A stretch of 32,000 nt of DNA from Promethearchaeota archaeon (GTDB taxonomy: Archaea; Asgardarchaeota; Lokiarchaeia; Sigyniarchaeales; SOKP01). The number at the start of each line of letters is the position of its first letter. Position 1 is the stretch's first letter. This document shows, piece by piece, positions 5,508-32,000 of the stretch. A program made the position numbers and the translations under genes. The notes under the pieces were generated by a model, which was given only the letters and a program-made list of their open reading frames with translations, was not told the DNA's origin and made no database searches. The stretch is from positions 330,001 through 362,000 of the forward strand of contig JAUWGH010000003.1 of the NCBI GenBank assembly GCA_030606485.1, read 5' to 3'.

Positions 5508-6728
5508 TTATTTACCCCACATTCTAATCATTTCTCTTGAAATAAGGTATCTCATAATTTCTGCAGTACCAGCGGATATTTGTCCAACTTTTGCATCTCG
5601 GTAATACCGTTCTAACGGATATTCTTCAGTGTATCCAAGTCCACCAACAATCTGTATGGCTTCTTGAGTAGTTTTAACTGAATCATCTGCAAGTCGGGCT
5701 TTAATTGCAGCTACTGAAGCTCTACAATAATGTCCATCATCAAGCATTCTGGCAATTTGAGTTACTGCCATCCTATTTAGCTCTATAGACATAAACATTT
5801 CACTAAGTTTAAATGAAATCCCCTCAAATGAATAAAGGGGTCTTTTAAATTGCATACGTCTATGTGCGTATTTATATGCCACTTCAAATGCACTTCTTGA
5901 GATGCCGAGATATTGAGACGCAGTAAAAGTGCGTTCCCCATCAAGACCAAAAAGCAATACATCTAATCCCACATTTTCTTTATGAAGCACATTTTCAACT
6001 GACACCTTACAATTATTAAATCTAAGATGTGAATTAGGCATTCCTCTGCGTCCCAGGTGTTTATAATCTTTGATAACTTCAAAACCAGGAGTATCAGTTT
6101 CAAATATAAATGCTGTCATACCTTGATGAGGTTTTACTTTATCATTTGTTATTGCATATAAACAGATATAATCAGCTACACTGCCATTTGTTATGAAACA
6201 TTTCTCTCCATTGAGGATATAATGATCCCCTTCTCTTTTAGCTTTTAATTTCATTCCACCAATTGCATCAGATCCCCCTGTTGGTTCTGTTACACCTATA
6301 GCACCAATTTTTGTGCCATCAGCAATTCCTGAAAGAAATTTCTTCTTTTGCTCTGGAGTTCCAAATTCTATAACAGGACCAGCAAATAAACATGAAGATG
6401 CTCCAAATGTACTTGCTAAAGCATAATTGAAAGCAGTTAATTCTTCACCAAAAATAGTACGATATAAAACCCCTTTACCAAGACCTCCAGCCTCTTCTGG
6501 GATAATTATATTTAAATAAGGCTTCATTTTTCGTAAAATTTCAACTACAAGCTCATAATTTCTCTCCCTATCAATTTTTTCTATAACAGGTTCAACATTT
6601 TCTTTGCACCACTTGCGTACTTCCATCCGGAAATCATTTTCTTCATTGGAATAGTAATGCAATCTTTCAGGCATACAAGAATATCCATACTCTATATTCA
6701 AATCTTCAAAATGAACATGTCCTTCCAT
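5508..6728 (-). CDS. Acyl-CoA dehydrogenase, isovaleryl-CoA-dehydrogenase-type active site
   Basis: GAIGVTEPTGGSD, LNGEKCFITNG, RMQFKRP, GGLGYTEEYPLERYYRDAK. Glu is in 'GLDGER', and 'ISAGTAE' lacks the MCAD-type Glu. Confidence 0.95.
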   Translation of the reverse strand: MEGHVHFEDLNIEYGYSCMPERLHYYSNEENDFRMEVRKWCKENVEPVIEKIDRERNYELVVEILRKMKPYLNIIIPEEAGGLGKGVLYRTIFGEELTAFNYALASTFGASSCLFAGPVIEFGTPEQKKKFLSGIADGTKIGAIGVTEPTGGSDAIGGMKLKAKREGDHYILNGEKCFITNGSVADYICLYAITNDKVKPHQGMTAFIFETDTPGFEVIKDYKHLGRRGMPNSHLRFNNCKVSVENVLHKENVGLDVLLFGLDGERTFTASQYLGISRSAFEVAYKYAHRRMQFKRPLYSFEGISFKLSEMFMSIELNRMAVTQIARMLDDGHYCRASVAAIKARLADDSVKTTQEAIQIVGGLGYTEEYPLERYYRDAKVGQISAGTAEIMRYLISREMIRMWGK

Positions 6729-6890
6729 TTATATCACAATCAAAATAGTTTGAATTATTGTTTTCATATTAATTATTAATGATTATTAATTTGTTTAAAA
6801 GATATTTAAATTGTAATTCTTTGACATTTATCTTACTTTTAAAAATATTTATAGAAAGGATTTAAAGTGTGAAAAAGTTGTATAAAATTT

Positions 6891-8558
6891 TTAAAAGATG
6901 GTTGTCATTTTATAAGTTCCAAAGACTTCTTTTAATATTTTACAAATTTCCCCAGTAGTAGCATAAACTTTTACGGCATCTATCAAGTAAGGCATTAAAT
7001 TCTCATCAGTTTTAGCAACTTCTTTGATTTTAATAAGTTTCTCATGCACAAGATTGTTATCTCTTGACTCTTTTATTTTCTTTAATTTATCAATCTGTTG
7101 TCGTTCAATTTTCGGATCCGATTTTAAAATCTCCAACTTTAAATCTTCTTTATCAATTTGAAATTTATTTACTCCAATTACAATTTGTTCTCCCTTTTCA
7201 ATGGATTGCTGTATTTTATATGCATTTTCTTGGATTTCTTTTTGAATATAACCGTTTTCTATCGCATTAATTGCGCCTCCTTGTTCTTCGATTTTTTTAA
7301 TTATTTTAAATGCCTCCTCTTCCATTTGATTTGTTAGTGATTCCAAATAGTATGATCCGCCAATTGGATCTATTACATTTCCAGCACCAGTTTCATATGC
7401 GATTATTTGTTGAGTTCGTAATGATAAACGTACAGAATCTTCACTTGGAAGACTTAAGGCTTCATCTCTACTACTTGAATGAATTGATTGAGCTCCTCCC
7501 AATACAGAAGCAAGAGTTTGAATGGCAACTCTTATTAAATTTACATCGGGCTGTTGAGCGGTTAATGAGGAACCGATAGTTTGAGCATGAAATCTTAATT
7601 GCATTGATTTTAAATCTTTTGCTTTAAATCTGTTTTTTATTATTTTAGCCCACATTCTTCTTGCAGCCCTAAATTTAGCAATTTCTTCAAAAAGGTCATT
7701 ATAAGTACAAAAAAAGAAAGCTAATCGACTTGCGAATTGATCAATATCCAAACCCCGTTTTAACACCTCTTCTACATACACTATTGCATTTGCTAAAGTA
7801 AAGGCAATCTCCTGAACTGCTGTTGCTCCAGCTTCTCGAATATGATACCCTGAGATGCTTATTGTATTAAAATGTGGGATTTTTTTTGAACAATACTCGA
7901 TCACATCGACGACTAACCTCATAGAGGGGGTGGGTGGGAAGATATAAGTATTTCTAGCAATATATTCTTTTAAAATATCATTTTGTACAGTTCCACGTAA
8001 TTTATCTATAGATACTCCTTGTTTTTCGGCCAATGCGATATACATCGCAAGAATTATAGCAGTAGGAGCATTGATGGTCATAGAGGTGCTAACTTGATCT
8101 AACGGAATATCCTCAAAAAGATCTTCCATATCCTTTAATGAGGAAATTGGCACTCCTGTCTTTCCAACCTCTCCTTGAGCTAAAATATGGTCACTATCGA
8201 ACCCCATCTGGGTACATAAATCAAAAGCGACGCTTAAACCAGTCTGACCATGTTCAAGTAAATATTTATAACGTTGATTCGTTAATTTAGCGTTCTGAAA
8301 GCCACTATACTGACGCATCGTCCACAATCTCCCTCTGTACATTGTTGAGTATGGTCCTCTTGTGAAAGGAAACTCCCCCGGAAAATTAATATCACCATAA
8401 GTAGTATCTTTCAGATCTAAAGGTGTATATATGGGTTTTAATTGAAAATATGAACTATTGTCAATTTTTTCTAAGTCAAATTTCTTAATTTTTTCTTTCC
8501 ATCTTTTTAAATCTTCGGAAAGTCTTTTTTCTTCTTCCTTATCTATCATTAATTTCAA
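6891..8558 (-). CDS. mcmA: Methylmalonyl-CoA mutase, large (substrate-binding) subunit of the split archaeal type
   Basis: PGEFPFTRGPY, WTMRQYSGF, GLSVAFDL, GTVQNDILKEYIARNTY, SISGYHIREAGAT, DPIGGSYYLESLT. Ends without a DxHxxG B12-binding domain. Confidence 0.96.
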   Translation of the reverse strand: MKLMIDKEEEKRLSEDLKRWKEKIKKFDLEKIDNSSYFQLKPIYTPLDLKDTTYGDINFPGEFPFTRGPYSTMYRGRLWTMRQYSGFQNAKLTNQRYKYLLEHGQTGLSVAFDLCTQMGFDSDHILAQGEVGKTGVPISSLKDMEDLFEDIPLDQVSTSMTINAPTAIILAMYIALAEKQGVSIDKLRGTVQNDILKEYIARNTYIFPPTPSMRLVVDVIEYCSKKIPHFNTISISGYHIREAGATAVQEIAFTLANAIVYVEEVLKRGLDIDQFASRLAFFFCTYNDLFEEIAKFRAARRMWAKIIKNRFKAKDLKSMQLRFHAQTIGSSLTAQQPDVNLIRVAIQTLASVLGGAQSIHSSSRDEALSLPSEDSVRLSLRTQQIIAYETGAGNVIDPIGGSYYLESLTNQMEEEAFKIIKKIEEQGGAINAIENGYIQKEIQENAYKIQQSIEKGEQIVIGVNKFQIDKEDLKLEILKSDPKIERQQIDKLKKIKESRDNNLVHEKLIKIKEVAKTDENLMPYLIDAVKVYATTGEICKILKEVFGTYKMTTIF

Positions 8559-8784
8559 CTCAAATAAGCAACCGAATAAAAATAATTATGAAAACAAATT
8601 AAAAATTAGCATTTACATTAGGATAATTTTTTTTGATCTTGTTTAATTTATTCATAATTTGTCAGAAAAATTAAAATTAATTAAAACTAAAACTAAATAA
8701 AATTAAATAAAAATTTTGTCAATTAAAATTAATTCAAATTAAATTTCAAAACAAAAAATACACAAAAAGTTGAATAAATCACAT

Positions 8785-8791
8785 AGGAGGT
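8785..8791 (+). promoter_or_regulatory. Shine-Dalgarno sequence AGGAGGT
   Basis: Lies 7 nt upstream of ATG 8799. Confidence 0.75.
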
Positions 8792-8798
8792 AAAAAAA

Positions 8799-9992
8799 AT
8801 GGAACTTAAATTTACTGAAGAACAAGAAATGTTCAGAGAAAGTGTAAGGGAGTTTTGTCAAAGGAAAATTACACCCGTTGCTCTTGAAATGGAAAAAACC
8901 AGGGAGATATCAATAGAAATCAAAAAAGGAATGGCCGAACTTGGTCTTCTTGGATGTACAGCTTCACCAGAATATGGTGGTTCGGGACTTGATGCAGTGA
9001 GCGCTGGTGTTATAGGAGAAGAGCTGGCAAGAGCAGATCCTACGGGTTCAATACCCGTTTTTTATCTCGTTCAAGCAGCATGGGGTTTTGTTCTCAATAA
9101 ATATGGAACAGAAGAAGCAAAAGAAGAGGTATTTCCAAAAGTTATTGCGGGAGAATATTTTCTTGGAATCGCTACAACTGAAAGTGATGCCGGGTCAGAT
9201 GTAGGAGGAACTAGAACTATGATCAAAAAGGAAGGTGATGGTTATATTGTAAATGGAGAGAAAATGTATATAAGTGGGGTACGCGAAGCTGCAGAAGGTG
9301 GTGGAGGACATCTTACGATTGCGAAGCAGAATCCAGAACTTGGCACTAGAGGTATGACAATGTTTTATTTACCTCTTACGGCTGATGGTATTACCCCAAC
9401 ATATATTGATGATTTAGGCAGAGAGGGTATATCCTGTGGTGGATTTGCAATAGATAATGTAAGAATTCCGAAGTATTATATAATAGGAGAAGAAAACAAG
9501 GGGTTTTACATTGTACACGAGGGGTACGAATTTGCAAGGGGATTAATTGCAGTAATATGCGCAGCAGCAGGTCTAAAATCATTAGAAAACGGTATGAATT
9601 ACATTAAAGAAAGAAAATGTTTTGGTACTGCTATTGGAAAATTTGAGGAAATAAACTTCAGACTAGCAGAACATTATACTAGGCTTAATATGTTAAGAGA
9701 TTTGGCATATAAGTCATTATGGACTATTGACAGAGAACAACAAGGAAAGGGATCCAGATTTGAAACAAGTAAAGCAATTGCTATGGCAAAAATGTTTGCA
9801 TCTGATTGGGCTTGCAATGCTATAAATGATGTAATGCAATGGCAGGGAGCATTTGGCTATTCTAAAGAGTGTCCAGACCAAGCTGCTTGGAGAGCTATAA
9901 GGTCTTTTGCGCTTGCAGAAGGTTCAAAAGAAATGATGAAGATGATCGTAGCTAGAGAGCTACTTGGCAAGGAATTTATTGCCTACAAGTGA
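8799..9992 (+). CDS. Acyl-CoA dehydrogenase
   Basis: IATTESDAGSD, VNGEKMYISG, RKCFGTAI, QWQGAFGYS. Putative catalytic Glu in 'LAEGSKEMMK'. Confidence 0.95.
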   Translation: MELKFTEEQEMFRESVREFCQRKITPVALEMEKTREISIEIKKGMAELGLLGCTASPEYGGSGLDAVSAGVIGEELARADPTGSIPVFYLVQAAWGFVLNKYGTEEAKEEVFPKVIAGEYFLGIATTESDAGSDVGGTRTMIKKEGDGYIVNGEKMYISGVREAAEGGGGHLTIAKQNPELGTRGMTMFYLPLTADGITPTYIDDLGREGISCGGFAIDNVRIPKYYIIGEENKGFYIVHEGYEFARGLIAVICAAAGLKSLENGMNYIKERKCFGTAIGKFEEINFRLAEHYTRLNMLRDLAYKSLWTIDREQQGKGSRFETSKAIAMAKMFASDWACNAINDVMQWQGAFGYSKECPDQAAWRAIRSFALAEGSKEMMKMIVARELLGKEFIAYK

Positions 9993-10068
9993 AAAGAATA
10001 ATCTTTTAAAATTTTTTTTATTATTTTATATTATTATTTTAAGGAAATAAAGATTAAAAAAAAATTTA

Positions 10069-10866
10069 GTGGATATTATTGTGAGATTTATAGTTTGTGT
10101 GAAAGAGGTTCCAGAATCAATAGATGTAAAAATTGATCTTAAAACTAATAAACTTCAGGAAGAAGGCATTTCAACAACTTTAAATCCCTTTGACCAATTC
10201 ATATTGGAGGAGGCTTTAAAGTTGAAGAAAGATGAGGATGAAATCATTGCAATTTCAGTAGGAACACCTCAAACAAAAATGGTTTTAATGAAATGTCTTG
10301 CACTTGGTGCTGATAAAGCTATTTTGCTCAGTGACAATGTCTTTATGGGATCTGATTCTTTTGCTACAGCCTACACTCTTTCTAAAGTAATTAATAAGAT
10401 TGGAGATTTTAATATAATTTTTTGTGGACAACAAACAGTTGATGGTAATACAGCTCAAGTTGGTCCCGAATTAGCCGCTCAGCTCAAAATACCACAAGTC
10501 ACATATGTAGAAAGCGTAGATAAATTTGAAGGACAGAAATTAGTTGTAAAATCCCAAACAGATGAAGGATTTAAAATAGTAGAATCCCAAATCCCTGTGC
10601 TTCTAGCGGGGATTCCTCCATCATCATTTACACCAAGCCTCCCACCTTTACGAAATATAATAGCAGCTCAAAATAAACCATGTATCATATGGAATTTTGA
10701 AGATTTAGGTGGTCCCAAAGATAAATACGGCTCGGCAGGATCGTTAATACAGATTATTAAAGTTTATTATCCTCCACCAAGGAAAAAAGGTATTGTGATC
10801 GTTGAAGAGCCCACAACTGCAGTTGAAAAGCTTATTGAATTATTAAATAAGGATAAGGTGATTTAG
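10069..10866 (+). CDS. etfB: Electron transfer flavoprotein beta subunit (true start possibly GTG 10081, giving MRFIVCVKEVP)
   Basis: VCVKEVP, LNPFD, LALGADKAILLSD, GSDSFATA, CGQQTVDGNTAQVGP. Confidence 0.95.
   Translation: MDIIVRFIVCVKEVPESIDVKIDLKTNKLQEEGISTTLNPFDQFILEEALKLKKDEDEIIAISVGTPQTKMVLMKCLALGADKAILLSDNVFMGSDSFATAYTLSKVINKIGDFNIIFCGQQTVDGNTAQVGPELAAQLKIPQVTYVESVDKFEGQKLVVKSQTDEGFKIVESQIPVLLAGIPPSSFTPSLPPLRNIIAAQNKPCIIWNFEDLGGPKDKYGSAGSLIQIIKVYYPPPRKKGIVIVEEPTTAVEKLIELLNKDKVI
10855..10862 (+). promoter_or_regulatory. Archaeal Shine-Dalgarno AAGGTGAT inside the etfB 3' end, positioned for a start at 10868
   Basis: GGTGAT matches the archaeal anti-SD complement and sits 5 nt before ATA 10868. 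Confidence 0.6.
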
Positions 10867-10867
10867 A

Positions 10868-11884
10868 ATAGAGTCGAAAAAGGATAATTTTTCTAGTTTT
10901 CAAGATGTATGGGTATTTGCCGAGATTAAGAATAATGAAATAAGAGAAATTACTTTAGAATTGCTTGGTAAAGCAAAAGAACTTGCAAATGAGTTAAAGC
11001 AAGATATTTGTGCTGTAATTATTGGAAGCGAAATAAGAAAATTCTGTAATGTACTCTCTACTTTTGGTGCAAATAAAATATTTATTGCTGAAGATGATGC
11101 CCTTAAAGAATATAACACAGAAATATATACTTCCATTCTTACTAGGATAATTCTAAAGCATAAACCAAATATTTTACTATTCCCTGCCACAAAAATTGGA
11201 AGGGATTTAGCACCAAGGGTTGCTTCCACACTAAAATTGGGGCTCGCAGCTGATTGTGTAAAATTAGTTATACAAGATGGTAAATTATTAATGACTCGTC
11301 CGGTGTATGGCGATAATATCTTAGCAGATATTATTTGTCCAAATACTCGACCACAAATGGCAACAATCAGAGCTAAAATGATGAAAAAGGCAGAACCAAA
11401 ACAAAATGAAAGTGCTGAAGTTATTAAAGAACCTGTTAATGTTAATGTTGATTCTTTTAAGACAATAGTAAAAGAAAAGAAAAAGACATCAATACCGGGT
11501 GTAAAATCAATTGATGAAGCTGATATTATTATATCTGGAGGCAGAGGCGTTGGAAGTAAAGAGACATTTAAAATTATCGAGGAATTATCTGATGTATTGA
11601 ATGCTGCTGTAGGAGCAAGTAGGGCTGCAGTTGAAGCTGGCTGGAAACCAAAATCATGTCAAATAGGACAGAGTGGTACAACTGTTTCACCAAAAATATA
11701 CATTGCCTGTGGAATATCGGGAACAACCCAGCATCTAGTAGGAATGAAAGGGAGTGAAGTTATAATAGCAATAAATAAAGACCCCGAAGCACCGATATTT
11801 GAGGTTGCAAATTATGGAATTATCGGAGATTTGAAAGAAATTGTACCGCTATTAACGAAAGCATTAAAAGAAAAAAAAATTTAA
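10868..11884 (+). CDS. etfA: Electron transfer flavoprotein alpha subunit; extended 5' from the ORF-track TTG 10961 to a probable ATA start (338 aa)
   Basis: The frame is open from 10862 and encodes ESKKDNFSSFQDVWVFAEIKNNEIREITLELLGKA, the conserved N-terminal strand. Also GRDLAPRVA, GLAADC, IISGGRGVGS, VGASRAAV, QIGQSG, YIACGISG, AINKDPEAPIF. Confidence 0.93.
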   Translation: MESKKDNFSSFQDVWVFAEIKNNEIREITLELLGKAKELANELKQDICAVIIGSEIRKFCNVLSTFGANKIFIAEDDALKEYNTEIYTSILTRIILKHKPNILLFPATKIGRDLAPRVASTLKLGLAADCVKLVIQDGKLLMTRPVYGDNILADIICPNTRPQMATIRAKMMKKAEPKQNESAEVIKEPVNVNVDSFKTIVKEKKKTSIPGVKSIDEADIIISGGRGVGSKETFKIIEELSDVLNAAVGASRAAVEAGWKPKSCQIGQSGTTVSPKIYIACGISGTTQHLVGMKGSEVIIAINKDPEAPIFEVANYGIIGDLKEIVPLLTKALKEKKI

Positions 11885-18970: not shown

Positions 18971-20668
18971 TTAGACAAAGGAAGATGCTAAATATATTGA
19001 TGTACCGATTATAGTCGCAACAACCATTATTACAATAAATAATAATCTTAAAAGAAAAGTCTTTTTAAGTGGTTTTGATAATACTGCTTTAAAATTAAAC
19101 TTTTCTCGAGATTTTAAAGTTACTGGTATGTAATAATTTATTGTAGAAGTCTTAAATTTTAATTGGTATAATGGAACACATAAATATATAAAAATCAGAA
19201 AGCATACAACGACCATAAAAATTGTACTGATAACAGAATCAAGAATTAAAACTGTTGATGTTGCTAGAGCCCAACTTTGTGTTATTTGTAAAGAAATAAA
19301 GAATAACAATCCCGGGATGGCAGCTACATCAAAAAAATCTAATTTTCTAAATTGCTTAGCAAGTTTTAGTTCAGTGGGTTTGTATGTGCGAATTTTGAAG
19401 AATTTATAACGAAATTTTCTTTGAAATTTTAAAATCTTATCGGAATCATTACATTCTATTAGATCACCATTAATATCACTAAAATCCTGCGAAATTGCTC
19501 TTATAACTAAAATTGAACCGAAAATAATTGCAAACCACCAATAAAGAGTGCCAAATAAAATAAAAAAATTCCACATTACAACAGAAGTAGCAATAAAGAA
19601 AATCCCCAAAATGAGGTTAGTATAAGAACGGTGAGTTGTACTAATTTGATTACTTTTCATAAATTCAGAAATTTCTTCTTTTTTCATGGAACATTCAAAA
19701 ACTTCTGATATATCCTCTGTTATGGGATCTATTTCTTTTAATCTTATTTTAGATTTCTCAGGCTCAAACCACATTTCATATAAATCATCCTTGGTAACAA
19801 TTTCAAAATAATGCTGAGGAGTTAAAACCAAAAAAAACAAGGCAAAACATTCCATAATAGCAGAAAAAATTAATAAGATTCCCTGAATTGGGGTTTCTAA
19901 TCTTGGAATCGCGTACATGTTTATGAGATAAAAACCTTCAATAAATGATAAAACAATAAAAGGCATTAATAGAACCACCCAAATAAGTTTTGGACCTAAG
20001 TGATTGTTTTGATACCGTAATGCTTCAATATCTTTTTTCAGAATTTTTGTAGTCCATGGAGAAGTAGGTCTAAATTCGTGAAAATACAAATTATTTTTTG
20101 AATTTGAAAAGACACCTCTAAAAGAGCTTATCATTACATACAAAAATAGACCGATCCCAAAAAGACTGGGAAAAAGACCAACAGTATAGAAATAAGAAGG
20201 ACCACCTAAAACTATTGCCTGACCGAATGGAGCCGAGTGGTGAGAAAGACCTCCAGTTAAAATGAATAGATCTACGAAACCCATAATAAGCAATAATAAT
20301 GAAGCAATTAATCTACTGAGGGCAAATGAATAAAATCTTATGGATTTTGCTGGTTTCTCATTAACTTCGAAAAACTTATCCAAATAATAAGAAACTATGT
20401 GCGGTTTAGGAATTTTCATTATTGTAATCTTTATACACATAAACAAACCAATCCCAAATAAAATCCACCCAAGAATGAAAGCAACTTCAAAATCAATACC
20501 AACATCTATAAATTCTACAGCATAACTTAAAACAATTATAAAGAAACCAAGAACTAATAAAAATGCTCCTAAGATAAGAATTATTAAAATTAAACGTCTT
20601 GGTTTTTCATATAATTCTTTAATTATATCAATCTCAACTGTTTGGTTTCTTTCTTCCATCTTAACCAT
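18971..20668 (-). CDS. Hypothetical polytopic membrane protein (565 aa) with apparent internal two-fold repeat
   Basis: About 11-12 hydrophobic segments in pairs, separated by short beta-rich soluble stretches. No family recognised. Confidence 0.8.
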   Translation of the reverse strand: MVKMEERNQTVEIDIIKELYEKPRRLILIILILGAFLLVLGFFIIVLSYAVEFIDVGIDFEVAFILGWILFGIGLFMCIKITIMKIPKPHIVSYYLDKFFEVNEKPAKSIRFYSFALSRLIASLLLLIMGFVDLFILTGGLSHHSAPFGQAIVLGGPSYFYTVGLFPSLFGIGLFLYVMISSFRGVFSNSKNNLYFHEFRPTSPWTTKILKKDIEALRYQNNHLGPKLIWVVLLMPFIVLSFIEGFYLINMYAIPRLETPIQGILLIFSAIMECFALFFLVLTPQHYFEIVTKDDLYEMWFEPEKSKIRLKEIDPITEDISEVFECSMKKEEISEFMKSNQISTTHRSYTNLILGIFFIATSVVMWNFFILFGTLYWWFAIIFGSILVIRAISQDFSDINGDLIECNDSDKILKFQRKFRYKFFKIRTYKPTELKLAKQFRKLDFFDVAAIPGLLFFISLQITQSWALATSTVLILDSVISTIFMVVVCFLIFIYLCVPLYQLKFKTSTINYYIPVTLKSREKFNFKAVLSKPLKKTFLLRLLFIVIMVVATIIGTSIYLASSFV

Positions 20669-20700
20669 CTAATATTTTTTTTTAACAATTTTATTTTTTC

Positions 20701-22239
20701 TTAACTTAAAGGTGGTGGAATAATTCCATAAGCGCGACCCATCCAATAAACGCAGTTATATACTCGACCATCTCCTTCAGTTAAACCATTCCCTTGGCGT
20801 CCACCATCTTCTTCAAATGGATTATCTCCCCAGAAATTGCCAGGATCATAATACATCATGTCAACAGTAGCAGGTTGCATCCAGAGCTCATCGGTAAAAT
20901 CAATTTCAAGTGCAATAGGTGCATATAGAAAGCCCAATGGTCCATTTAAAATTTGATTCCATTTTTCTGGTGCTGGATTCTTAGTATGCCATGAGGGGCG
21001 TTCCGTTGCATTAAAGTTTATATATCCTCCCTTTCCCCATTCGATATTATTTTGAAACCGCATTAATTGGTCAAAAATATCATTACGAATTGTTTGATTT
21101 TCATCTCCTGTCCAAACTAGATATATCATATTAAAAAACGCATTACGATGATATCTTATAAGCGGATAAGTGCCTTGAATATATTCATTAATAAAAAATT
21201 GTTTTAAGTTAGGATCTTGCGTAGTCATAATTAGATTGAAGAGGTCCATGTGTCCAAAATTCCATCCATAGTATTCTTCAATTATATTGAAAGTAGAACC
21301 TTCCCCAATGCCATTCATGTACATGTTCTTAGTTGCATAATAGTGCCATAAATCATCATATAGCCCGGGATATGCTATTCTACCCAAATTTAATAATGAT
21401 AAAACCCATTCTCCTGAGCCTAAAGTGGCTTTTAAATCAGTTCCACAAGGGTTTCCATCTCCTCCAATAACCAACCAATTGGTTTTTCTAAATCCCTCTA
21501 TTAATTGAGCGATTAATAATTTAACACGCTCCTGCACCCACGAGTCATCACATAACTGAAGTGCGCGCCCTAAACCAAATAAATAACCACCCATCTCATC
21601 TTTGGAAGTATATAATCTACAACGCCAATTTTCATATTCACCGGAACCATTGAAATGTCTTACATGGGGGCTTAGCATCCAATTAGTAACATGCTCATAT
21701 CCTGGAATATTTTTATGCTCAGGAGCCCAATAGAATCTGGCTGGAATTCCCGGATAATCAGGACCAATTCCACCATTTGGAACAGCGAGCATATAAGAGA
21801 ATCCGGTTAGTAATCCCTTTATTATTCTCAATGCATCTTCCATCATTGCTAAATTGCCTTCATCTTTCGCTGCTTTGTATTTAAAGCAATAAGTAGCTAG
21901 TGACGTTCCGGTTGATAACCCAGCATTATCGGTGGAATGGTAATATGCAGGAGTCGTGTAGTTATAATCTGTAAATGTAATTGTCAAGGACAAATTTGAA
22001 GCCATGTGAAACTGTTCAAATCGAAGATCTAATTTTGCAGACAATTGATCCATTTTGTTAAAATCGGGCTCTATAAAATCAGTCGTATTTAATCCGATAG
22101 TATAAGTAAAGGAGGCTAGGTCATCCAAAATATAAAACACACCACCAGCGTATCCCAAAAAAGAACCAAATGGGAGAAAAAACAACAATACCACAAGTAA
22201 ATTATGTCGTTTTAAATTTTTTCTAGTTCTAATTCTCAT
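20701..22239 (-). CDS. N-terminally anchored/secreted protein, predicted helical-barrel enzyme-like fold, function unknown
   Basis: Basic N-terminus plus a hydrophobic helix (aa about 14-38). Conserved-looking motifs TDNAGLSTG, TSKDEMGG, RNAFFNMIY, NPFEEDGG, YWMGRAYGII. Confidence 0.8.
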   Translation of the reverse strand: MRIRTRKNLKRHNLLVVLLFFLPFGSFLGYAGGVFYILDDLASFTYTIGLNTTDFIEPDFNKMDQLSAKLDLRFEQFHMASNLSLTITFTDYNYTTPAYYHSTDNAGLSTGTSLATYCFKYKAAKDEGNLAMMEDALRIIKGLLTGFSYMLAVPNGGIGPDYPGIPARFYWAPEHKNIPGYEHVTNWMLSPHVRHFNGSGEYENWRCRLYTSKDEMGGYLFGLGRALQLCDDSWVQERVKLLIAQLIEGFRKTNWLVIGGDGNPCGTDLKATLGSGEWVLSLLNLGRIAYPGLYDDLWHYYATKNMYMNGIGEGSTFNIIEEYYGWNFGHMDLFNLIMTTQDPNLKQFFINEYIQGTYPLIRYHRNAFFNMIYLVWTGDENQTIRNDIFDQLMRFQNNIEWGKGGYINFNATERPSWHTKNPAPEKWNQILNGPLGFLYAPIALEIDFTDELWMQPATVDMMYYDPGNFWGDNPFEEDGGRQGNGLTEGDGRVYNCVYWMGRAYGIIPPPLS

Positions 22240-22336
22240 TTTTTATACACAAGATTGCATTAAATAAAAGATTGGATCTATAATTATATAAATTTTAGAT
22301 TTGTTAATTTAGAATAATTATTAAAGAGATGAGATA

Positions 22337-22349
22337 GAAAGTATATATT
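22337..22349 (+). promoter_or_regulatory. Putative BRE/TATA promoter (GAAAG TATATATT) for the 7TM gene
   Basis: Consensus-like archaeal promoter about 75 nt upstream of GTG 22423. Confidence 0.45.
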
Positions 22350-22422
22350 AAAAATATGAAATTTCAAATAATAATTATTTCAAGAATAATATTAAGTTAA
22401 AAATATTTAAGAGATTTTTAGA

Positions 22423-23202
22423 GTGTTTTTTCAAGAGATTAGTCAGCTGGCTCACGTTTCAGGGATAACTGCATTTATATCTATTTTGGTGGCATTTCTT
22501 TTAGCGGGGATAATATTAGGTAAAGCCATTAAAGAAAAATCTCGCATTGTATTTGAATTTTCTTTTTGTGTTGTTTTTACAATATCACCATGGTTCCCCT
22601 CAGGTATGGGTTATTTATATTTTTTGATTACAGGAGTACATCTCCCATATGAGATCTATATAATAATTGGAAATCTTTTCCTTCCTCTCGCGATCATTTT
22701 CTGGCTTGATATATATCTTACTACAGTTAGTCCAAGTAGAAGAAATCCAATATTATGTATATATATTTTTTTCTCAATATTTTTCTGGATATATGCTTTT
22801 TATTTCTTATATTTTTCTCCAACTGCTCCTGTTGAAGAGATGTTAGGAATAATAGATGACCCGACAAATCCATTTGATATTGATTACAAAGGGTTTGTTT
22901 TAGTGTATTTAGCAACTAGTATATTTACATCATGTACAACTGGCTTTCATTTTGCTGCAAAATCTTTAAAAATTGAAGATAAAGAAATTCAATGGAAGGG
23001 GAGATTCTTATTAATCGCATTTTTATGCTTCGGAATAAGTGCCATCGCAGATTCAGTTATTCCAATGACTGAGATCTCATTGGTGATTTTCAGAATAATA
23101 TTAATTTTAGCAAATTTGTTTTTCTATATTGGTTTTATTCTGCCAAAGTGGATAAAAAAGATTATCTTTCATGAGGATAAAACCCAGACCGACGGAATAT
23201 AA
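22423..23202 (+). CDS. Stand-alone seven-transmembrane protein
   Basis: Seven hydrophobic helices and a short amphipathic tail (LPKWIKKII). No cytoplasmic output domain. Confidence 0.8.
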   Translation: MFFQEISQLAHVSGITAFISILVAFLLAGIILGKAIKEKSRIVFEFSFCVVFTISPWFPSGMGYLYFLITGVHLPYEIYIIIGNLFLPLAIIFWLDIYLTTVSPSRRNPILCIYIFFSIFFWIYAFYFLYFSPTAPVEEMLGIIDDPTNPFDIDYKGFVLVYLATSIFTSCTTGFHFAAKSLKIEDKEIQWKGRFLLIAFLCFGISAIADSVIPMTEISLVIFRIILILANLFFYIGFILPKWIKKIIFHEDKTQTDGI

Positions 23203-23300
23203 ATATTAATTGTATTTATCATTTTTTTCTTTATATATTAAATTTCATTAATGAATTTTACATTATGAAATGAAAGAGAATTTTTTAGGTATGATATGAG

Positions 23301-23675
23301 ATGCGACTAAATAAAAAGTTAGTAAAAGAATTTCAGGATTACGATTTTTCCCTAATAAAAGAAAAGAAGTTATTTTTAGTAGGTTCGGCAAGATTTCGTG
23401 ATTATTTCATTAAAATTGAGTCAATCTTACAAATAAAGTACAAAAAATTAGTTTCCATTGCCTCGGTTGATGGGCTCTTGAATAAAGATATGTTTTCAGA
23501 AGATGAATGGGAAATTTTACAAGAAATTGCCTTATCTAAATTAAAAGATCAAGAAGCAATTTTAGTTTTAGATATAAATGGTTATATTGGAGATCATACT
23601 AGACAAGAAATAAAGTTCTTCCAGAATGAAATACATAGACCTATATATTATTTATCACGATTAAGAATTTCTTAA
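23301..23675 (+). CDS. Nucleoside 2-deoxyribosyltransferase-like (DUF4406-like) small protein
   Basis: LFLVGSARF...KLKDQEAILVLDINGYIGDHTRQEI...RPIYYL fits the GS..F / KI..ad.ilv...GYIG..T..E pattern. Confidence 0.6.
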   Translation: MRLNKKLVKEFQDYDFSLIKEKKLFLVGSARFRDYFIKIESILQIKYKKLVSIASVDGLLNKDMFSEDEWEILQEIALSKLKDQEAILVLDINGYIGDHTRQEIKFFQNEIHRPIYYLSRLRIS

Positions 23676-24565: not shown

Positions 24566-27500
24566 TTAAATACTACCAGGAATTGGTATAAAATATCTAA
24601 AATCTATTAGATCATATGTATTAGCAACTATTTCTTCCTTCGATTTTTTAGGTAAGGCTGAAATTAAGTAAGTTAATAATTTACTGATAAAAAATGATTT
24701 GTAATCTATTTCTAATGTCTTGGCTAAAGAAATTATGTTTTTCTGAAGGAGATTCAATTTTATTCTATGTGGATTTTTATTTACAATGTGAGGAAAAGAT
24801 AAATTCAATTTTAATACTTGATTAATAAGTTCCATATGATCACTGAAAGGTCTAAGATCACCAGAGAATACTTCTAAATATTTTTCGTATTTTTTCTCAA
24901 ATTCTTCAATAAATTGCGAAACTAATATCTTTAGATTCTCTGAAGGTTCAGATGTTAATGTTAATGCCAATCGAATAAATTTTCCATCTTGAAGAAAAAT
25001 AATGTAATCTTGGTAATCTATTTTAAAACCACCCGTAGATTCTTCCAATTTAGCACCTGGCTTTAATTCATATTTAAATTCCATAATTGCTTGAAGGAAA
25101 CCACTCACTAAAGTACCATCAAATTTAATTTGTCTAAATTCCTTCGTTATTAAAGCAAGGCCACTTAATTTATGGATAACTATTAAATATTCAATGTTTA
25201 GTATATCTGAAAATTTATTAGTTTTTTCGTACCAAATTTGTTTTCTCTTCTTTTTCCTTGAGTAATTTACTAAAATATAAGAGGTAATTATTAATAAAAA
25301 GCCCGCAATAAAAGGAATCAAAAGTAAAAATTCTGAAATAAATTGTTCTGTTGTTGATCTAACATCTATATTCGTTATACTGATACTTGAGTTTCTATTA
25401 TTAATAGTTCCGTCGAAAAGAACTTTTATTTCTATTGAATTAACTTTTCCTATAATATGGTGAACAATAGCATATCCATTATTACCAGTAATTGTGGGAA
25501 TGTTAATAACTAATAAATCTCCATTCTCAGAGATTTCTATTATTTGAAAAATAATTGATTCATTTGCTAATGGATTTTCTCCGGATTTTAAAATCACTTC
25601 AAGTTCAATCAAATCATCCCAAACATAAAAATCCTTAAAATTATTAAGAAATTCTAAGCTACTATTTTCTCTTTTCAATACAGTTATATTTATTGATGTT
25701 TCTACTGGTGTGTAGTCAGAAGCATTCATTTCAATTTTAACTTCATATATTCCTGGATTTAAATTACCAAGATTTAAAGTTCCTTGATACCACCCAAAAT
25801 TTGAGACTACTGGTATAAATTCGTCAGAATATGGAATAAATCCTTCGATTTTCATCTTTACATGAGCATCCAAAATATCTTGCTGACGAAATGTATCTTT
25901 TAATATAACAATTAATTCAAGGTCTTGCTCTTGATATAAAGTTAAATTACGAAAATCTTCTGAAATTTCAATAGTTGAAGGATAAGGATTGATATAAACA
26001 GATCTTTCTTCAAAATAAGTTCTAAATTTGGGTTTTGTTATAGTAATTTTTAGGTTATAAGTTTCATTAATATTAAGGTTAGTGGAATCTAAAAATAGTT
26101 TGAAAATACCTGGTTCAGTGGAAGCGAAACTCAATTTATTTTCTCCCAGATAAGCATTTATTAAAGCTGTTTCAATTGGACCGTAAGCATATGAGAGATT
26201 GAGAATTACACTTTTACTCAGGTCATTTGTATAAACGACGGGAATCGGATCAAGATCAACATTAAAATCTGCTGGTATAAATGTCAGATTATAATTTATA
26301 CTTGATTCATTATAAGTAATATTACTTTCACGAGCTTTGCTAGCTTTTATGGTTAAATTATAATAACCAATATCTAAATAATCTAAAAGAAAAGTGATAT
26401 TGTATCTATTTGGTATTTCTGAAACAATATATGCATAAGAGGGAATTAAATCAGTCCCATTATTAATTATAAATTGTCCATTAGTTAGATTTTCTTTTTG
26501 AGCTTTGCTTTCATCATGGAATCTCACGCATACAAATGGAGTATCTCCATATATAACATTTTGGGGTGAATGTGAAAGAATTGTTAAATTGGTGATATGT
26601 GGTGGGTTATATATTTTGAATGTATCATTTTGATTAACTTCTAAATAACTTCCAATTTTTATCGCATAAAATTCAATAGTTAAATTTTCTAATTCTCTAC
26701 CATCAAATAATATTTCAGTTAATAATGTGATATCATAGTTTCCATCATTATGATCAAAAATATTATAAGCTATATCACTTATGGATTGCCTTCCACCATT
26801 TTCTGCTGAAAAATTTACCCAAATTGAAAAATCAACATCAGAAACACTTTCATTAGTAATAGAATCATTTAAGTAAATATAGTAAGTAGCATAATCTCCT
26901 AAGACAAATGTATTATTTTCTTTATTAGCTCCAGTAATTGTCATATTAAGGGATCTATATTTGATATTTAAAGTTGAATTATACGTATAACTAGAGAAAT
27001 ACATATTTTCTGCTGTAAAGTTAATAAGATAATCTCCAGCGGGTAAATCAGGTTGGGTTGTATCAATTGTTATATTTAATAATCCTGTATTTATTGAATC
27101 GATGTAATAATGCTTATATTCCGATAATGACTTCCAAGTGCCAGAGGTGGAATTTATTTGAACGATTAAATCGTCTAAATCTAATGATTCATTATTATAT
27201 GAATTATTTATAGAAAAGAGATAAGAAGCAAAATTATTTTTATAAACTAAAGAATTAGATTCTAATAATATCATATTCATTTGAGATAAGGTTACATTAA
27301 ATACTAATGTTTCAATTCCTGCCATAGTGCCATTATTAGAATGAATTTGTAATCTAATTTGTGTATTATTTTCTTTCGCACCAGTATCCTGATCAGGGCG
27401 CCATATAGGAAAGAAAAAATTACTTTCAGTAATATTATCTTCAAGTATTACATCTAATACAGAAGTATATATATACATTGAAGTAGCACCATTGGAGTTA

Positions 27501-28945
27501 TTAAATTGAACAGAAACATTTATATAATCCGTTATATTAGCAAAATTCATAATATTAATCCATGTTTGATTATTATTACTTGATTGGATTTGAGTGCTTA
27601 AAATTGCATTAGTTTGATTAAAGGTACATCTCCAGTTATTGTTTGAGATATTAAGAAGATCAATAAAATTTGGATTAACAATAACTTCAGTATCGCTAAA
27701 TAACACACTTTCATTATAGGTGCAATTATACCTCCAGAATTTAGGTTTATAAAAACGTGCAGTATTATTTCGAGAATCGCTTGGAAAATGATTCATAAAT
27801 AAAGTTGAATTCCATAAGATGTCTTTTCCAACTGTCGCATTAAAAGTAGAAGAAGATTTTGTGTTATATTTAAAATTTCCTAGAAAAGATACATTATATT
27901 TTACCTCATTAAACCATAATGAAGATATTGGAATGTGAAATTGATTATTTTCATTTGGAAAAAAGGCTTGATTATGATAAATTCCAGAAATATTAACTGG
28001 TGTGCCAAATACGGTTAAATTTATTTGATCTGGCGTTGGTGTGTTGGTTAATGGAGCTAAATTTACTTTAAGTAAGCCATTTTTTCCAGTTTGTTCAATC
28101 CATGAATCACTTAAGGGAAATCTTTTATAAAAAATATTTTCATATTGATCATTTGGTTCCTCGAAAGCATAGAAAATAAAACCCCGTTTATCCATAAATC
28201 CACCATAAGCAATATCAATTACATGAAATACAGCAAAAAATGTATTATTAACAGTTTTTGATATATTCAAAATTATATTAGTATAATTTGCTTGATACCA
28301 TTTAGCTGGTTGATAATATACTTCATTTTCTAAATCAAAAGTGAAATTATCATAAGCATCATCTAAAGTCTCATTTGGAACTATTTTACTGTTTTCATCA
28401 ATAGTAGCATTATAAATCCTAATGGTAAATATGGATTGGCCTGATGGTACACCAATTTCTCCCGGATATTGAATAAGCATTGAGATATTTCTAACATAAC
28501 ATGAATTTGGAATTTCAAATGATGAGGAATAATAATCGTCAGTATCATTAAATTCATCAGCATCACCACTTCTTATTTCAAAGGGAATATATTTTTCAGT
28601 AGTATATAGACTTGTAAAATTTAACTCAAAATTTGTCATATTCCAACCAAGAACGGAATTATTGTATGTAATACCACTATCTTCAGTAGTTTGATTTATA
28701 AAAGTGAAATTTCTAGAGGAATAGAGAGAGACATTTTGAGAAAGACCCACATCGATAAAAGAACCTTGGCCAATCTCGGCAGAATTTTTAAGTTTCTGAC
28801 CATAGGAATCTTCATATATAATTTCATTATTATCTGATTTTAAATCATTTCCAAATAGAGTAAGATCTGAAATAACTATTTGAAAAACTGATATAGTAAC
28901 AATTAAACAGCCTAAAAATATTATCCACTTATTATTTTTCCTCAA
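24566..28945 (-). CDS. Large cell-surface receptor-like glycoprotein: N-terminal signal/anchor, about 1170-aa beta-rich ectodomain, one TM, cytoplasmic longin-like domain and helical/wHTH tail (TTG start)
   Basis: Hydrophobic aa 7-25. Many N-x-S/T sequons. TM 'FLLLIPFIAGFLLIITSYILV' followed by RKKKRK. Then YLIVIHKLSGLALI...TLVSGFLQAIMEF...RLALTL...LVSQFIEEFEKKY. Confidence 0.85.
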   Translation of the reverse strand: MRKNNKWIIFLGCLIVTISVFQIVISDLTLFGNDLKSDNNEIIYEDSYGQKLKNSAEIGQGSFIDVGLSQNVSLYSSRNFTFINQTTEDSGITYNNSVLGWNMTNFELNFTSLYTTEKYIPFEIRSGDADEFNDTDDYYSSSFEIPNSCYVRNISMLIQYPGEIGVPSGQSIFTIRIYNATIDENSKIVPNETLDDAYDNFTFDLENEVYYQPAKWYQANYTNIILNISKTVNNTFFAVFHVIDIAYGGFMDKRGFIFYAFEEPNDQYENIFYKRFPLSDSWIEQTGKNGLLKVNLAPLTNTPTPDQINLTVFGTPVNISGIYHNQAFFPNENNQFHIPISSLWFNEVKYNVSFLGNFKYNTKSSSTFNATVGKDILWNSTLFMNHFPSDSRNNTARFYKPKFWRYNCTYNESVLFSDTEVIVNPNFIDLLNISNNNWRCTFNQTNAILSTQIQSSNNNQTWINIMNFANITDYINVSVQFNNSNGATSMYIYTSVLDVILEDNITESNFFFPIWRPDQDTGAKENNTQIRLQIHSNNGTMAGIETLVFNVTLSQMNMILLESNSLVYKNNFASYLFSINNSYNNESLDLDDLIVQINSTSGTWKSLSEYKHYYIDSINTGLLNITIDTTQPDLPAGDYLINFTAENMYFSSYTYNSTLNIKYRSLNMTITGANKENNTFVLGDYATYYIYLNDSITNESVSDVDFSIWVNFSAENGGRQSISDIAYNIFDHNDGNYDITLLTEILFDGRELENLTIEFYAIKIGSYLEVNQNDTFKIYNPPHITNLTILSHSPQNVIYGDTPFVCVRFHDESKAQKENLTNGQFIINNGTDLIPSYAYIVSEIPNRYNITFLLDYLDIGYYNLTIKASKARESNITYNESSINYNLTFIPADFNVDLDPIPVVYTNDLSKSVILNLSYAYGPIETALINAYLGENKLSFASTEPGIFKLFLDSTNLNINETYNLKITITKPKFRTYFEERSVYINPYPSTIEISEDFRNLTLYQEQDLELIVILKDTFRQQDILDAHVKMKIEGFIPYSDEFIPVVSNFGWYQGTLNLGNLNPGIYEVKIEMNASDYTPVETSINITVLKRENSSLEFLNNFKDFYVWDDLIELEVILKSGENPLANESIIFQIIEISENGDLLVINIPTITGNNGYAIVHHIIGKVNSIEIKVLFDGTINNRNSSISITNIDVRSTTEQFISEFLLLIPFIAGFLLIITSYILVNYSRKKKRKQIWYEKTNKFSDILNIEYLIVIHKLSGLALITKEFRQIKFDGTLVSGFLQAIMEFKYELKPGAKLEESTGGFKIDYQDYIIFLQDGKFIRLALTLTSEPSENLKILVSQFIEEFEKKYEKYLEVFSGDLRPFSDHMELINQVLKLNLSFPHIVNKNPHRIKLNLLQKNIISLAKTLEIDYKSFFISKLLTYLISALPKKSKEEIVANTYDLIDFRYFIPIPGSI

Positions 28946-29225: not shown

Positions 29226-29522
29226 TCATTTTTTTTTCTTTTTCGCTTTCATATCTTTTTCTTTTGCAAGAATAGCCTCTTCCATAGACTCATTAAGTTC
29301 TTTTGATTTTCCTTCAAATCTAAATTTTCCAAAAATCTTACTTTCCTCTCTCTGCCCAGATGTTGAGATTTTTTCAAATGTTAAAGTAATATCATTCTCG
29401 TTTTTAAGGGCATAATTAACGAAGTTTATAAATCCTATATGTTTACTTGGAGCAATATTAAACTTTATTGATGAATCTTTTCCTTTCTTGTTTTTTACTT
29501 TTAAAACTAGCCTTAACTTCAA
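29226..29522 (-). CDS. Small Lys-rich hypothetical protein (98 aa, TTG start)
   Basis: Occupies otherwise empty space and has alternating beta-strand-like patterns and a KAKKKKK tail. No family recognised. Confidence 0.7.
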   Translation of the reverse strand: MKLRLVLKVKNKKGKDSSIKFNIAPSKHIGFINFVNYALKNENDITLTFEKISTSGQREESKIFGKFRFEGKSKELNESMEEAILAKEKDMKAKKKKK

Positions 29523-29851: not shown

Positions 29852-30508
29852 ATGAATAAAAATTCCGGAAATAAAAAATTAAAAGTAGAAGATGAATGGG
29901 AAGGCTATGATTATATAGCTAATTTGACATATAAAATAGAGAATGTTGTTGGGACGGTAGTTACAGATATTATCGAACCAGTTGATTTGAATCTAATTGC
30001 AGCCCATGATGAAAGTGTTCAATACAATCCTGAAAGATTTCCAGGGTTAGTTATGAGAATTGAAAAGCCACGTGGCACCGCCTTAATATTTTCTACAGGA
30101 AAAATGGTTATTACAGGTCTTAGAGCAGCATCTGAAGCAGACAAAGTTGTTCAAAAAATTATCAAGAATATAAAAAAAGTGGGAATAGAAATGAAAAATC
30201 CTGTTATAACCGTTCAAAATATTGTAGCAAGTGGGGATCTCCATACAAACATAGATTTAAATATGGCTACTGTCGTAATGGACGATGCAATGTATGAGCC
30301 TGAGGTTTTCCCCGGATTGATTTATAGAATGCAAGATCCAAAAACAGTATTTCTTGTTTTTTCAACTGGAAGAATTGTCTGTACTGGGGCAAAAACCAAA
30401 CAAACAGTTCGAGAAGCAGTTCTCAAATTAAACAAGTATGTTCGAGAGATAGGAATTGCCAAGAAGAATTTAGAACCATATAATTATGGTGAATTTGATT
30501 TTCTCTAA
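29852..30508 (+). CDS. tbp: TATA-box-binding protein
   Basis: Two direct repeats: IENVVGT / VQNIVAS, YNPERFPGLVMR / YEPEVFPGLIYR, IFSTGKMVITG / VFSTGRIVCTG. Confidence 0.98.
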   Translation: MNKNSGNKKLKVEDEWEGYDYIANLTYKIENVVGTVVTDIIEPVDLNLIAAHDESVQYNPERFPGLVMRIEKPRGTALIFSTGKMVITGLRAASEADKVVQKIIKNIKKVGIEMKNPVITVQNIVASGDLHTNIDLNMATVVMDDAMYEPEVFPGLIYRMQDPKTVFLVFSTGRIVCTGAKTKQTVREAVLKLNKYVREIGIAKKNLEPYNYGEFDFL

Positions 30509-30644: not shown

Positions 30645-31439
30645 ATGTCTTCAAAACTTTTCTCATACTTATTGAAAAATAATCAATGGATAAAGTCTGA
30701 TGCGATTTCCATTGATGATGTCACAGTTTTAGTGGATACTACGAGAGATATCATCTGGTATTTAGAAGAAAAGAAAGCAACAGCAAGAAAAAAATTTGAA
30801 GCTAGAGGGCTTTTAGGAGAATTAAAGAAAAAGTATGAACCATACAAATTTAAGAAAATAGATCATAGAGCCCCCATTGATGTTTTAGAAAAAATAGAGG
30901 AATTGAAGAAAAGCACTTCACATCTAAGTATGAAATTTAGAGGTAAAGAGATTCAAGAATTTTCAAAATACTTGTATTTTTTAAATATTGTTGCTGGAGT
31001 ATTACAAGTAATTTGCATGATAATCATCACATGGGCACTTTCTTGGCCCCAGGTTTATGATTCACAATCTTATTTGAATTATATTATAAATTCTAATCAC
31101 TTTTACTTTTATATAGAATTAGATTCACTATTACTCTTTTTCTCCTTGATAATTTTTATATTTACATCATTTTTTGGAATAATAATTTTAAGAAGAAAAA
31201 TATTCACTACGAGTTCAATATTTTTAGCAGTAATAATATTTTTATCATTAATATATATTAGAATTGGACCTACATTATTATATTTTCAAGCCACCTCACC
31301 TTTTCCTAATATTTTAATAAGAGTAGATGCTTTCTTATTTTTCATTATTGGAGTAGATATAATTTTATTTGTATCTATTGTGGGCTCAATTATCCCAGGA
31401 ACTTATTGGTTAATAAAGAAGAATATTAAAAAAATTTAG
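30645..31439 (+). CDS. Gelsolin-like N-terminal domain fused to a four-TM membrane domain (ORF track starts at TTG 30615; ATG 30645 preferred)
   Basis: DDVTVLVDTTRDIIWYLEEKKATARKKFEARGLLGELKKKY resembles the gelsolin-repeat core (D.v.lvD...iw.w.G..a....k..a). Four hydrophobic helices follow. Confidence 0.6.
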   Translation: MSSKLFSYLLKNNQWIKSDAISIDDVTVLVDTTRDIIWYLEEKKATARKKFEARGLLGELKKKYEPYKFKKIDHRAPIDVLEKIEELKKSTSHLSMKFRGKEIQEFSKYLYFLNIVAGVLQVICMIIITWALSWPQVYDSQSYLNYIINSNHFYFYIELDSLLLFFSLIIFIFTSFFGIIILRRKIFTTSSIFLAVIIFLSLIYIRIGPTLLYFQATSPFPNILIRVDAFLFFIIGVDIILFVSIVGSIIPGTYWLIKKNIKKI

Positions 31440-31472: not shown

Positions 31473-32000
31473 ATGCCATCAAAATTTCGATTACGCTACA
31501 TTTTTAGACCGCTAATTAATAAGTTAGCAAAAATATTAGGAAGAATTGGTCTTACTCCGAATTATGCAACTGCAATTATGCTCATTTTATCTTTTTTTTG
31601 TTTTATTTTTCTTACTGTTTTGAAAATTGAATGGCTATTTGGGATTTTTGTTTTTTTAGTAGGTATATTCGATGGAATAGATGGCGCAATTGCAAGACTT
31701 TTGAAAAAGGAATCAAAATTTGGAGGATTTTTGGATTCAATTGCTGATAGATTCTCTGAAATTATAATTTTCTTAGCAATTTTACTCTATTTTGGGAACC
31801 AAAAATTTTGGAATTTGATTGAAATTAATTTTATTATTTACATTTCATTGGGAGCCTCCCTTCTTATTAGCTATGCTCGAACACGAGCACAAAATATTTC
31901 TTCAGGAGATTTTGATATTGGATTAATGGGACGATCTGAAAGATTATTTTTTATCTCAATATCTTCTATTTTAGGGTGGCTTTGGGAGTGCCTTCCCATA
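31473..32000 (+). CDS. CDP-alcohol phosphatidyltransferase, probably archaetidylinositol phosphate synthase-like (3'-truncated; not in ORF track)
   Basis: Manual translation MPSKFRLRYIFRPLINKLAKILGRIGLTPN...FDGIDGAIARLLKKESKFGGFLDSIADRFSE...SYARTRA contains the D-x2-D-G-x2-A-R...G-x3-D-x3-D signature. Confidence 0.93.
   Translation, partial: MPSKFRLRYIFRPLINKLAKILGRIGLTPNYATAIMLILSFFCFIFLTVLKIEWLFGIFVFLVGIFDGIDGAIARLLKKESKFGGFLDSIADRFSEIIIFLAILLYFGNQKFWNLIEINFIIYISLGASLLISYARTRAQNISSGDFDIGLMGRSERLFFISISSILGWLWECLPI

Follow-up and report, generated by a model that had tools for sequence, protein, structure and literature searches.

A single gelsolin-like domain on a four-helix membrane bundle in Lokiarchaeales, a candidate link between Lokiactin and the cell membrane

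The protrusions of Lokiarchaea are filled with Lokiactin, and a locus in which a gelsolin-like domain precedes four membrane helices raises the question whether such a protein could link actin to the membrane. The Asgard actin regulators found in the literature, namely profilins and the gelsolins ProGel, 1DGelX and 2DGel, are soluble only, whereas the protein analysed here, termed GelTM, is a membrane-integral candidate for this link. The three gelsolin architectures, all of them soluble, were described by Akil et al. 2020 (PMC7444086), extended 2DGels were added by Akil et al. 2022 (PMC9433394), and actin binding was shown experimentally for ProGel and other Asgard gelsolins (PMC7444086, PMC9433394). 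The statement of an earlier note on this DNA that the characterised Asgard gelsolins are soluble holds in the literature (PMC7444086, PMC9433394, and a 2025 preprint on L. ossiferum). Full-text searches of publications on Asgard gelsolins for the terms transmembrane, anchored and tether as well as for locus tags revealed no description of a membrane-integral gelsolin, and in the literature searched the GelTM fusion is not previously described.

In this study, we analysed a window, i.e. the whole stretch of 32,000 nucleotides, of a Promethearchaeota (Asgard) genome of 3.75 Mb in 13 contigs. The window is AT-rich with a GC content of 22–39%. The GelTM gene begins with an ATG at 30645 and ends with a stop codon at 31437–31439; the coordinates given for it in the earlier note (264 codons, ATG to stop) were correct, and the peptide quoted there represents residues 4–64. 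An in-frame TTG upstream, at 30615, would be an alternative start but is not used by the relatives, and the start site M-S-S-[KN]-L-F is common to all of them in the alignment. The gene is real far beyond chance, as full-length matches were found throughout its family and order. The features of the locus are listed in Table 1.

Table 1. Features of the GelTM locus and the second GelTM gene of the same genome. Positions are those of the window unless a contig is named; residues are those of the encoded GelTM protein.
Feature	Position	Strand	Evidence
Conserved 98-aa lysine-rich ORF, divergent from GelTM	29226..29522	-	tblastn/phmmer synteny, alignment A6, model
TATA-binding protein (TBP) gene, neighbour within the genus only	29852..30508	+	PF00352 E 2.7e-54, synteny
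GelTM gene, clade A, 264 aa: gelsolin-homology (GH) domain, stalk and four-TM bundle	30645..31439	+	ORF, homologs, model pLDDT 88.9
GH domain, residues 4-85; D25 invariant, VLVD31, IIW38-Y-L-E-E42, helix 47-63, P77	30654..30899	+	profile, Foldseek, VIA
Helical stalk, cytoplasmic, residues 78-108, continuous with TM1	30876..30968	+	DSSP helix 78-133, pLDDT profile
TM1, residues 109-133, conserved L-N motif	30969..31043	+	hydropathy, model, conservation
Outer loop 1 with beta-hairpin, residues 134-150, family mean 0.4 K+R	31044..31094	+	model, charge count
TM2, residues 151-181	31095..31187	+	hydropathy, model
Short cytoplasmic loop L-R-R-K, residues 182-185, positive-inside	31188..31199	+	charge count
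TM3, residues 186-211	31200..31277	+	hydropathy, model
Outer loop 2 with beta-hairpin, residues 212-227; I-R-x-D starts here	31278..31325	+	model, conservation
TM4, residues 228-256, and lysine-rich cytoplasmic tail, residues 257-264	31326..31436	+	hydropathy, model
CDP-alcohol phosphatidyltransferase gene, runs off the window; complete 210-aa gene at L011:2329-2961	31473..32000	+	PF01066, NF040950
Clade-B GelTM paralog, 252 aa, canonical Y-L-W-Q-G	L012:1501-2259 = G000:C6:249537-250292	+	profile/tree

As a single sequence, GelTM matched neither a Pfam family (including Gelsolin) nor an NCBIfam family, and phmmer against the PDB gave no significant match; matches to LytTR (E 0.04) and Ku80 (E 1.7) were noise. 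When 27 relatives were scanned singly, Pfam Gelsolin was the family most often matched, weakly and in five of them (best E 0.0033). Since the window protein alone has no Pfam match, the assignment to the Gelsolin family rests on the profile and not on a curated Pfam threshold. This profile (alignment A3) comprises 29 N-terminal domains of the GelTM family. Searched against the PDB, it matched villin with E 3.7e-16 summed over repeats, gelsolins with many matches around 1e-8 (one at 2.5e-8), and the Thorarchaeota ProGel chain 7c2f_B with E 4.1e-7 for one domain; Thor 2DGel3 and Loki 2DGel were matched as well. The sequence block D-x-[FV]-[IV]-L-D...I-[YW]-x-W-x-G...A is common to the GelTM family profile and gelsolin, villin and adseverin.

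An AF2 model built on 27 sequences (mean pLDDT 88.9) shows strands in residues 5–41, the long helix 47–63, a strand 68–71 and a helix from 78, that is, the mixed beta-sheet with one long helix and a short C-terminal helix of the GH fold, and bears out the N-terminal domain of about 85 residues proposed before. The Foldseek comparison recommended in the earlier note came out in favour of a gelsolin fold. The best match was the ProGel/rabbit-actin complex 7c2f_B (E 8.8e-5, TM 0.67 by target), and the next ranks were all taken by gelsolin, villin, adseverin and Asgard 2DGels. The probability was 1.00 for ProGel, gelsolin, villin and adseverin, and Sec23/24 entries were absent among the top 50. 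Alignment with VIA superimposed GelTM and ProGel with Z 10.4 and an rmsd of 2.5 Å over 82 of the 88 ProGel residues at 18% identity, and a shape search of the ESM Atlas led to gelsolin clusters. On the grounds of profile and model, homology of the N-terminal domain to a gelsolin repeat can be regarded as established. If the resemblance were due to chance or convergence, GelTM would be a plain uncharacterised membrane protein, in keeping with the failure of the single sequence to match Pfam, NCBIfam or, by phmmer, the PDB. This is extremely improbable and effectively refuted by the profile, Foldseek and VIA results, as the profile matched many independent gelsolin-family chains and both fold and shape searches arrived at the same family.

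The signature motifs of gelsolins are degenerate in the window copy. Where gelsolins have I-x-x-W-x-G, it reads I-I-W38-Y-L-E41-E42; the W-x-G ('DWG') signature is absent, with no Gly and with the Trp two positions early, and the L-E-E reported at this position before is correct for this copy (L40-E41-E42). The Glu42 variant is present in more than 12 independent assemblies of this species and is thus a real variant and not a sequencing error. Gly42 is retained in the GelTM of nearly all other species, and the canonical Y-L-W-Q-G is kept by a second clade of the family, clade B (see below). Regarding calcium, the type II site of gelsolins is formed by a conserved Asp before strand B and a Glu at the start of the long helix, which we take to be D187/E209 and D670/E692 in human gelsolin. 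In the GelTM family, D25 is invariant and aligns with the type II Asp, but the position of the Glu is occupied by K49 in the window protein and is variable and mostly non-acidic across the family, so that the Asp is present and the Glu missing. As this partner Glu is not conserved, regulation by calcium via the canonical gelsolin site appears unlikely from the sequence. In the type I site, Ca2+ is coordinated jointly by Glu167 of actin and by an Asp located where the long helix ends C-terminally; the equivalent of this Asp in GelTM is Leu57 by eye, at a place where the alignments give no reliable cover. As far as calcium is concerned, the sequence of the GH domain looks more like ProGel and cofilin than like the calcium-switched 2DGels.

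Eukaryotic gelsolin, villin and adseverin share the repeat fold and the D...W-x-G block with GelTM, but have 3–6 repeats, are soluble or peripherally membrane-associated, and are calcium-activated; to our knowledge, none of them is an integral membrane protein. ProGel, the best structural match, likewise has a single GH domain of about 85–90 residues. It differs in being soluble with about 92 aa, whereas GelTM adds the stalk and the four-TM bundle, and the window GelTM differs further by the Glu in place of the W-x-G glycine and the shifted Trp. ProGel binds actin (PMC7444086), whereas GelTM is known here from sequence and model. The 1DGelX and 2DGel proteins of Thor-, Loki- and Heimdallarchaeota (7c2g, 7c2h, 7whg) share GH domain and phylum with GelTM, and in 1DGelX one GH domain is also followed by a C-terminal extension, which alters the function of 1DGelX (PMC7444086); however, these proteins are soluble throughout, and a coiled coil is predicted for domain X. 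The 2DGels keep the type I and type II calcium signatures and a WH2-like motif (PMC9433394), whereas GelTM has K49 and no second domain. The genome analysed here also encodes at least six soluble GH proteins (a 2DGel with zinc ribbon, two 1DGelX-like proteins and others), Lokiactin (445 bits to PF00022) and three actin-related proteins. In another genome (G279), at L085:9855-11126 (plus strand) and three other places, several ORFs of 424–594 aa start with a GelTM-like GH domain (profile positions ~6–101) and continue differently, representing further uncharacterised GH architectures of a sister family.

Hydropathy revealed four membrane segments in GelTM, and in the AF2 model the helices 78–133 (unbroken), 150–182, 185–211 and 227–263 form a four-helix bundle. 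Both parts of the architecture proposed in the earlier note, the gelsolin-like domain and the four TM helices fused to it, are therefore borne out by family profile, AF2 fold and hydropathy. The 'short linker' between them has to be revised, as in the model a helical stalk about 30 residues long runs into TM1 without interruption. This stalk is charged, and its low pLDDT (54) near residues 90–100 makes a hinge probable in the model. Throughout the family, K+R cluster in loop 2 and the C-terminal tail, with few of them in loops 1 and 3. According to the positive-inside rule, this bias places the GH domain and both termini in the cytoplasm, as had been assumed for the GH domain before.

On the far side of the modelled bundle, two beta-hairpins (136–149 and 214–226) are predicted. 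Two polar motifs of the bundle are conserved, L-N in TM1 and I-R-x-D ahead of TM4 (I225 and R226 in outer loop 2, D228 as first residue of TM4), and they hint at a role of the bundle beyond passive anchoring. One possibility is that GelTM acts as a transmembrane signal transducer, in which the outward hairpins would sense an external cue or the surface of a partner cell and the stalk would relay the signal to the GH domain, leading to local actin remodelling or recruitment of another protein. The two outer hairpins are ordered, predicted with high confidence and contain conserved residues such as those of I-R-x-D, and the continuous TM1-stalk helix with its low-confidence hinge does join bundle and GH domain. 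Nevertheless, such a function is improbable, because each outer loop is just some 16 residues long, searches of Pfam and NCBIfam pointed to no known sensor family, and the TM bundle resembles generic four-helix bundles only. In the latter search, performed with VIA-align for a specific relative of the bundle, many of the matches were designed proteins and the Z values were as expected for helical bundles; a feature-based search of the Atlas returned only the family's own cluster. Comparison of the two TM-hairpin-TM halves by hhalign gave a weak in-register alignment (P 6e-4, probability only 11–27%), and an internal duplication of this unit is suggestive from the sequence, but not shown.

The GelTM family comprised 13 clusters in a word-indexed search and 24 representatives in an exhaustive phmmer search. 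With the full-length profile, GelTM was found in 127 of 134 genomes in the family to which the window belongs, and no genome searched in the order's three remaining families lacked it (1/1, 14/14 and 4/4). Outside the order, only weak matches with E ~1e-6 were obtained. The profile of the TM part alone matched 112/134, 1/1 and 13/14 genomes in three families of the order, none of the four genomes in the fourth family and none of the seven in the rest of the class, and gave three weak matches elsewhere. In these profile searches the fusion is thus confined to Lokiarchaeales and appears as an innovation of one order, which includes Ca. Lokiarchaeum ossiferum, Promethearchaeum syntrophicum and Ca. 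Harpocratesius repetitus. In a maximum-likelihood tree of 51 members, one branch (support 100/98) parts clade A from clade B, and the same branch separates GelTM genes linked to a lipid gene (see below) from unlinked ones. Judged from the sequences, the clades are two old paralogs, and the genome analysed here carries both.

In this genome, the clade-B gene shares a contig with the Lokiactin gene, at a distance of about 19.5 kb; in a congener, about 16.7 kb separate the two, and this proximity was seen within the genus only. Clade-B members exist in both cultured model strains, L. ossiferum (UYP46179.1, NEF87_002464, annotated as 'hypothetical protein') and P. syntrophicum MK-D1 (DSAG12_00505, annotated as 'hypothetical'), which makes an actin-membrane linkage directly testable. 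DSAG12_00505 is transcribed in cultured MK-D1 with an RPKM of 157 (Imachi et al. 2020, PMC7015854 Supp. Table 3) and was not flagged as a eukaryotic signature protein (PMC7015854). In the Lokiactin co-immunoprecipitation of L. ossiferum (2025 preprint), in which membrane proteins are probably under-represented according to its authors, UYP46179.1 is absent from the five GH proteins listed. In both L. ossiferum (L081:8443-9345) and MK-D1 (DSAG12_00506) the clade-B gene adjoins a TFIIB gene, and clade A adjoins the TBP gene in the window, which is probably a coincidence.

The earlier note had located the gene between tbp and a lipid-synthesis gene, which is correct (PF00352 upstream, E 2.7e-54; PF01066 downstream, E 7.4e-17), and had taken this to suggest a core locus, which is not: the TBP gene is a neighbour within the genus only, and the lipid gene is the third-best of three paralogs. 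In RNA runs, one metatranscriptome contig and one probable DNA contig cover the TBP gene only. The lipid gene, a CDP-alcohol phosphatidyltransferase (CDP-OH_P_transf E 3.3e-16), follows clade-A GelTM on the same strand at all 26 clade-A loci in the window's family. Among named families, it is closest to the archaetidylinositol phosphate synthase NF040950 (131 bits, E 4.6e-38), with which it shares the CDP-alcohol phosphatidyltransferase fold; the score lies below the equivalog cut-off of 180 bits, and two paralogs in the genome score higher (170 and 157 bits). Therefore, its substrate is uncertain, and its third rank points to a specialised partner and not a housekeeping core enzyme. The third conserved member of the locus, the 98-aa ORF, was without relatives in sequence searches of Pfam, NCBIfam and the PDB, and Foldseek gave nothing at E <= 0.001 for its model (pLDDT 82), which shows a beta-beta-alpha-beta-beta arrangement with a C-terminal helix. 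In some relatives, this ORF is duplicated in tandem. Clade-A GelTM, lipid gene and 98-aa ORF lie within 2 kb in four arrangements across three families: in addition to the window's family, a second family (one genome) and a third (two genomes) have the trio in three other orders and orientations. Since the trio was kept through these rearrangements, functional linkage is favoured over inherited synteny.

This neighbourhood is the basis of the main rival to an actin tether. In this alternative, the GH domain would not bind actin, and clade-A GelTM would be a membrane subunit or regulator of the archaetidylinositol-phosphate-synthase-like neighbour, perhaps together with the 98-aa protein, with the basic GH domain as a module for interaction with lipid headgroups or proteins. 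Gelsolin-like domains of Sec23/24 do serve protein-protein contacts. The persistence of the trio within 2 kb, the gap of only 33 nt between the GelTM stop and the lipid gene start, the conserved polar residues in the TM bundle, the basic N-terminal region (24 K+R versus 17 D+E) and the degenerate calcium and W-x-G signatures all agree with such a role. However, clade-B proteins are built in the same way although neither the lipid gene nor the 98-aa ORF adjoins their genes, so that the lipid gene does not account for the fusion as such; moreover, the nearest matches in structure were without exception gelsolins that bind actin, with Sec23/24 missing from the top 50. We consider this alternative unlikely on balance.

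The most economical reading of a cytoplasmic actin-regulator domain fixed in the membrane of cells with Lokiactin-filled protrusions is actin-membrane coupling. GelTM would then be an integral membrane protein whose single cytoplasmic GH domain most likely binds Lokiactin, a reading to which we assign about even chances and whose tether function is plausible but unproven. In its favour are the gelsolin homology and fold, the experimental actin binding of ProGel and other Asgard gelsolins, the cytoplasmic placement of the GH domain, the Lokiactin of the genome and the conservation of the gene; against it speak the missing Pfam Gelsolin match of the window protein, its degenerate W-x-G motif, the lack of the type II Glu, the polar motifs of the bundle and the absence of UYP46179.1 from the co-immunoprecipitation list. 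A single GH domain of the one-domain type of ProGel and cofilin, carried by the helical stalk that continues into the four-helix bundle, would be held within about 4–5 nm of the inner face of the membrane. It may bind Lokiactin as monomer, at the filament side or at the filament end, and in this way connect actin with the cell membrane. A single domain resembling ProGel points to binding of monomers or of the filament side and not to severing triggered by calcium, and regulation would probably proceed without the canonical gelsolin calcium site.

The conserved association of clade A with the inositol-lipid-synthase-like enzyme points to local control by lipids or to a complex formed by both proteins. 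Eukaryotic gelsolin is regulated by PI(4,5)P2, and phosphoinositides also control cofilin and profilin. Actin regulation at the membrane under phosphoinositide control is established for gelsolin and a possible analogy for GelTM: clade A may be controlled by, or act with, an inositol phospholipid provided by the co-located enzyme. Actin binding, lipid regulation and co-transcription are properties of GelTM that we only infer. Tentatively, we propose GelTM as the first integral-membrane actin-binding protein of archaea, a linker specific to Lokiarchaeales that would connect Lokiactin filaments or their ends to the plasma membrane of protrusions, with clade A coupled to a dedicated inositol-phospholipid synthase. 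If true, GelTM would be a prokaryotic counterpart of phosphoinositide-regulated actin-membrane coupling that predates eukaryotes, and the conserved neighbourhood raises the idea that this coupling and inositol lipids were already linked in archaea.

Some further observations were made around the locus and in the rest of the window. About 190 nt downstream of the lipid gene and shortly past the 3' end of the window, a Ras-family small GTPase is encoded (L011:3148-3687, plus strand, PF00071 E 3.2e-44); this position is kept in the three closest genomes, and a relative whose GelTM is 52% identical has a homolog of the GTPase gene on the opposite side of the locus. In a Promethearchaeia MAG with a 52% identical GelTM, the phosphatidyltransferase frame (L046:6391-7707, plus strand, 439 aa from stop to stop) runs into PhoU_div/DUF47, which could reflect either a gene fusion or two genes lying end to end. 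Four consecutive ORFs (565, 512, 259 and 124 aa) at 18971–23675 of the window had no Pfam match at E <= 0.001. A 1459-aa ORF on the minus strand (24566–28945) has a long ectodomain rich in N-x-S/T sites, a single TM segment at about residue 1190 and a C-terminal part of about 230 aa in the cytoplasm; it gave a weak, sub-threshold match to Pfam TMEM154 (E 0.005) and none in NCBIfam, and by its sequence it is probably a large glycosylated surface protein. Finally, a fatty-acid/branched-acid oxidation cluster at 3464–11884 comprises genes for thiolase, enoyl-CoA hydratase, two acyl-CoA dehydrogenases, the large subunit of methylmalonyl-CoA mutase, and ETF beta and alpha.
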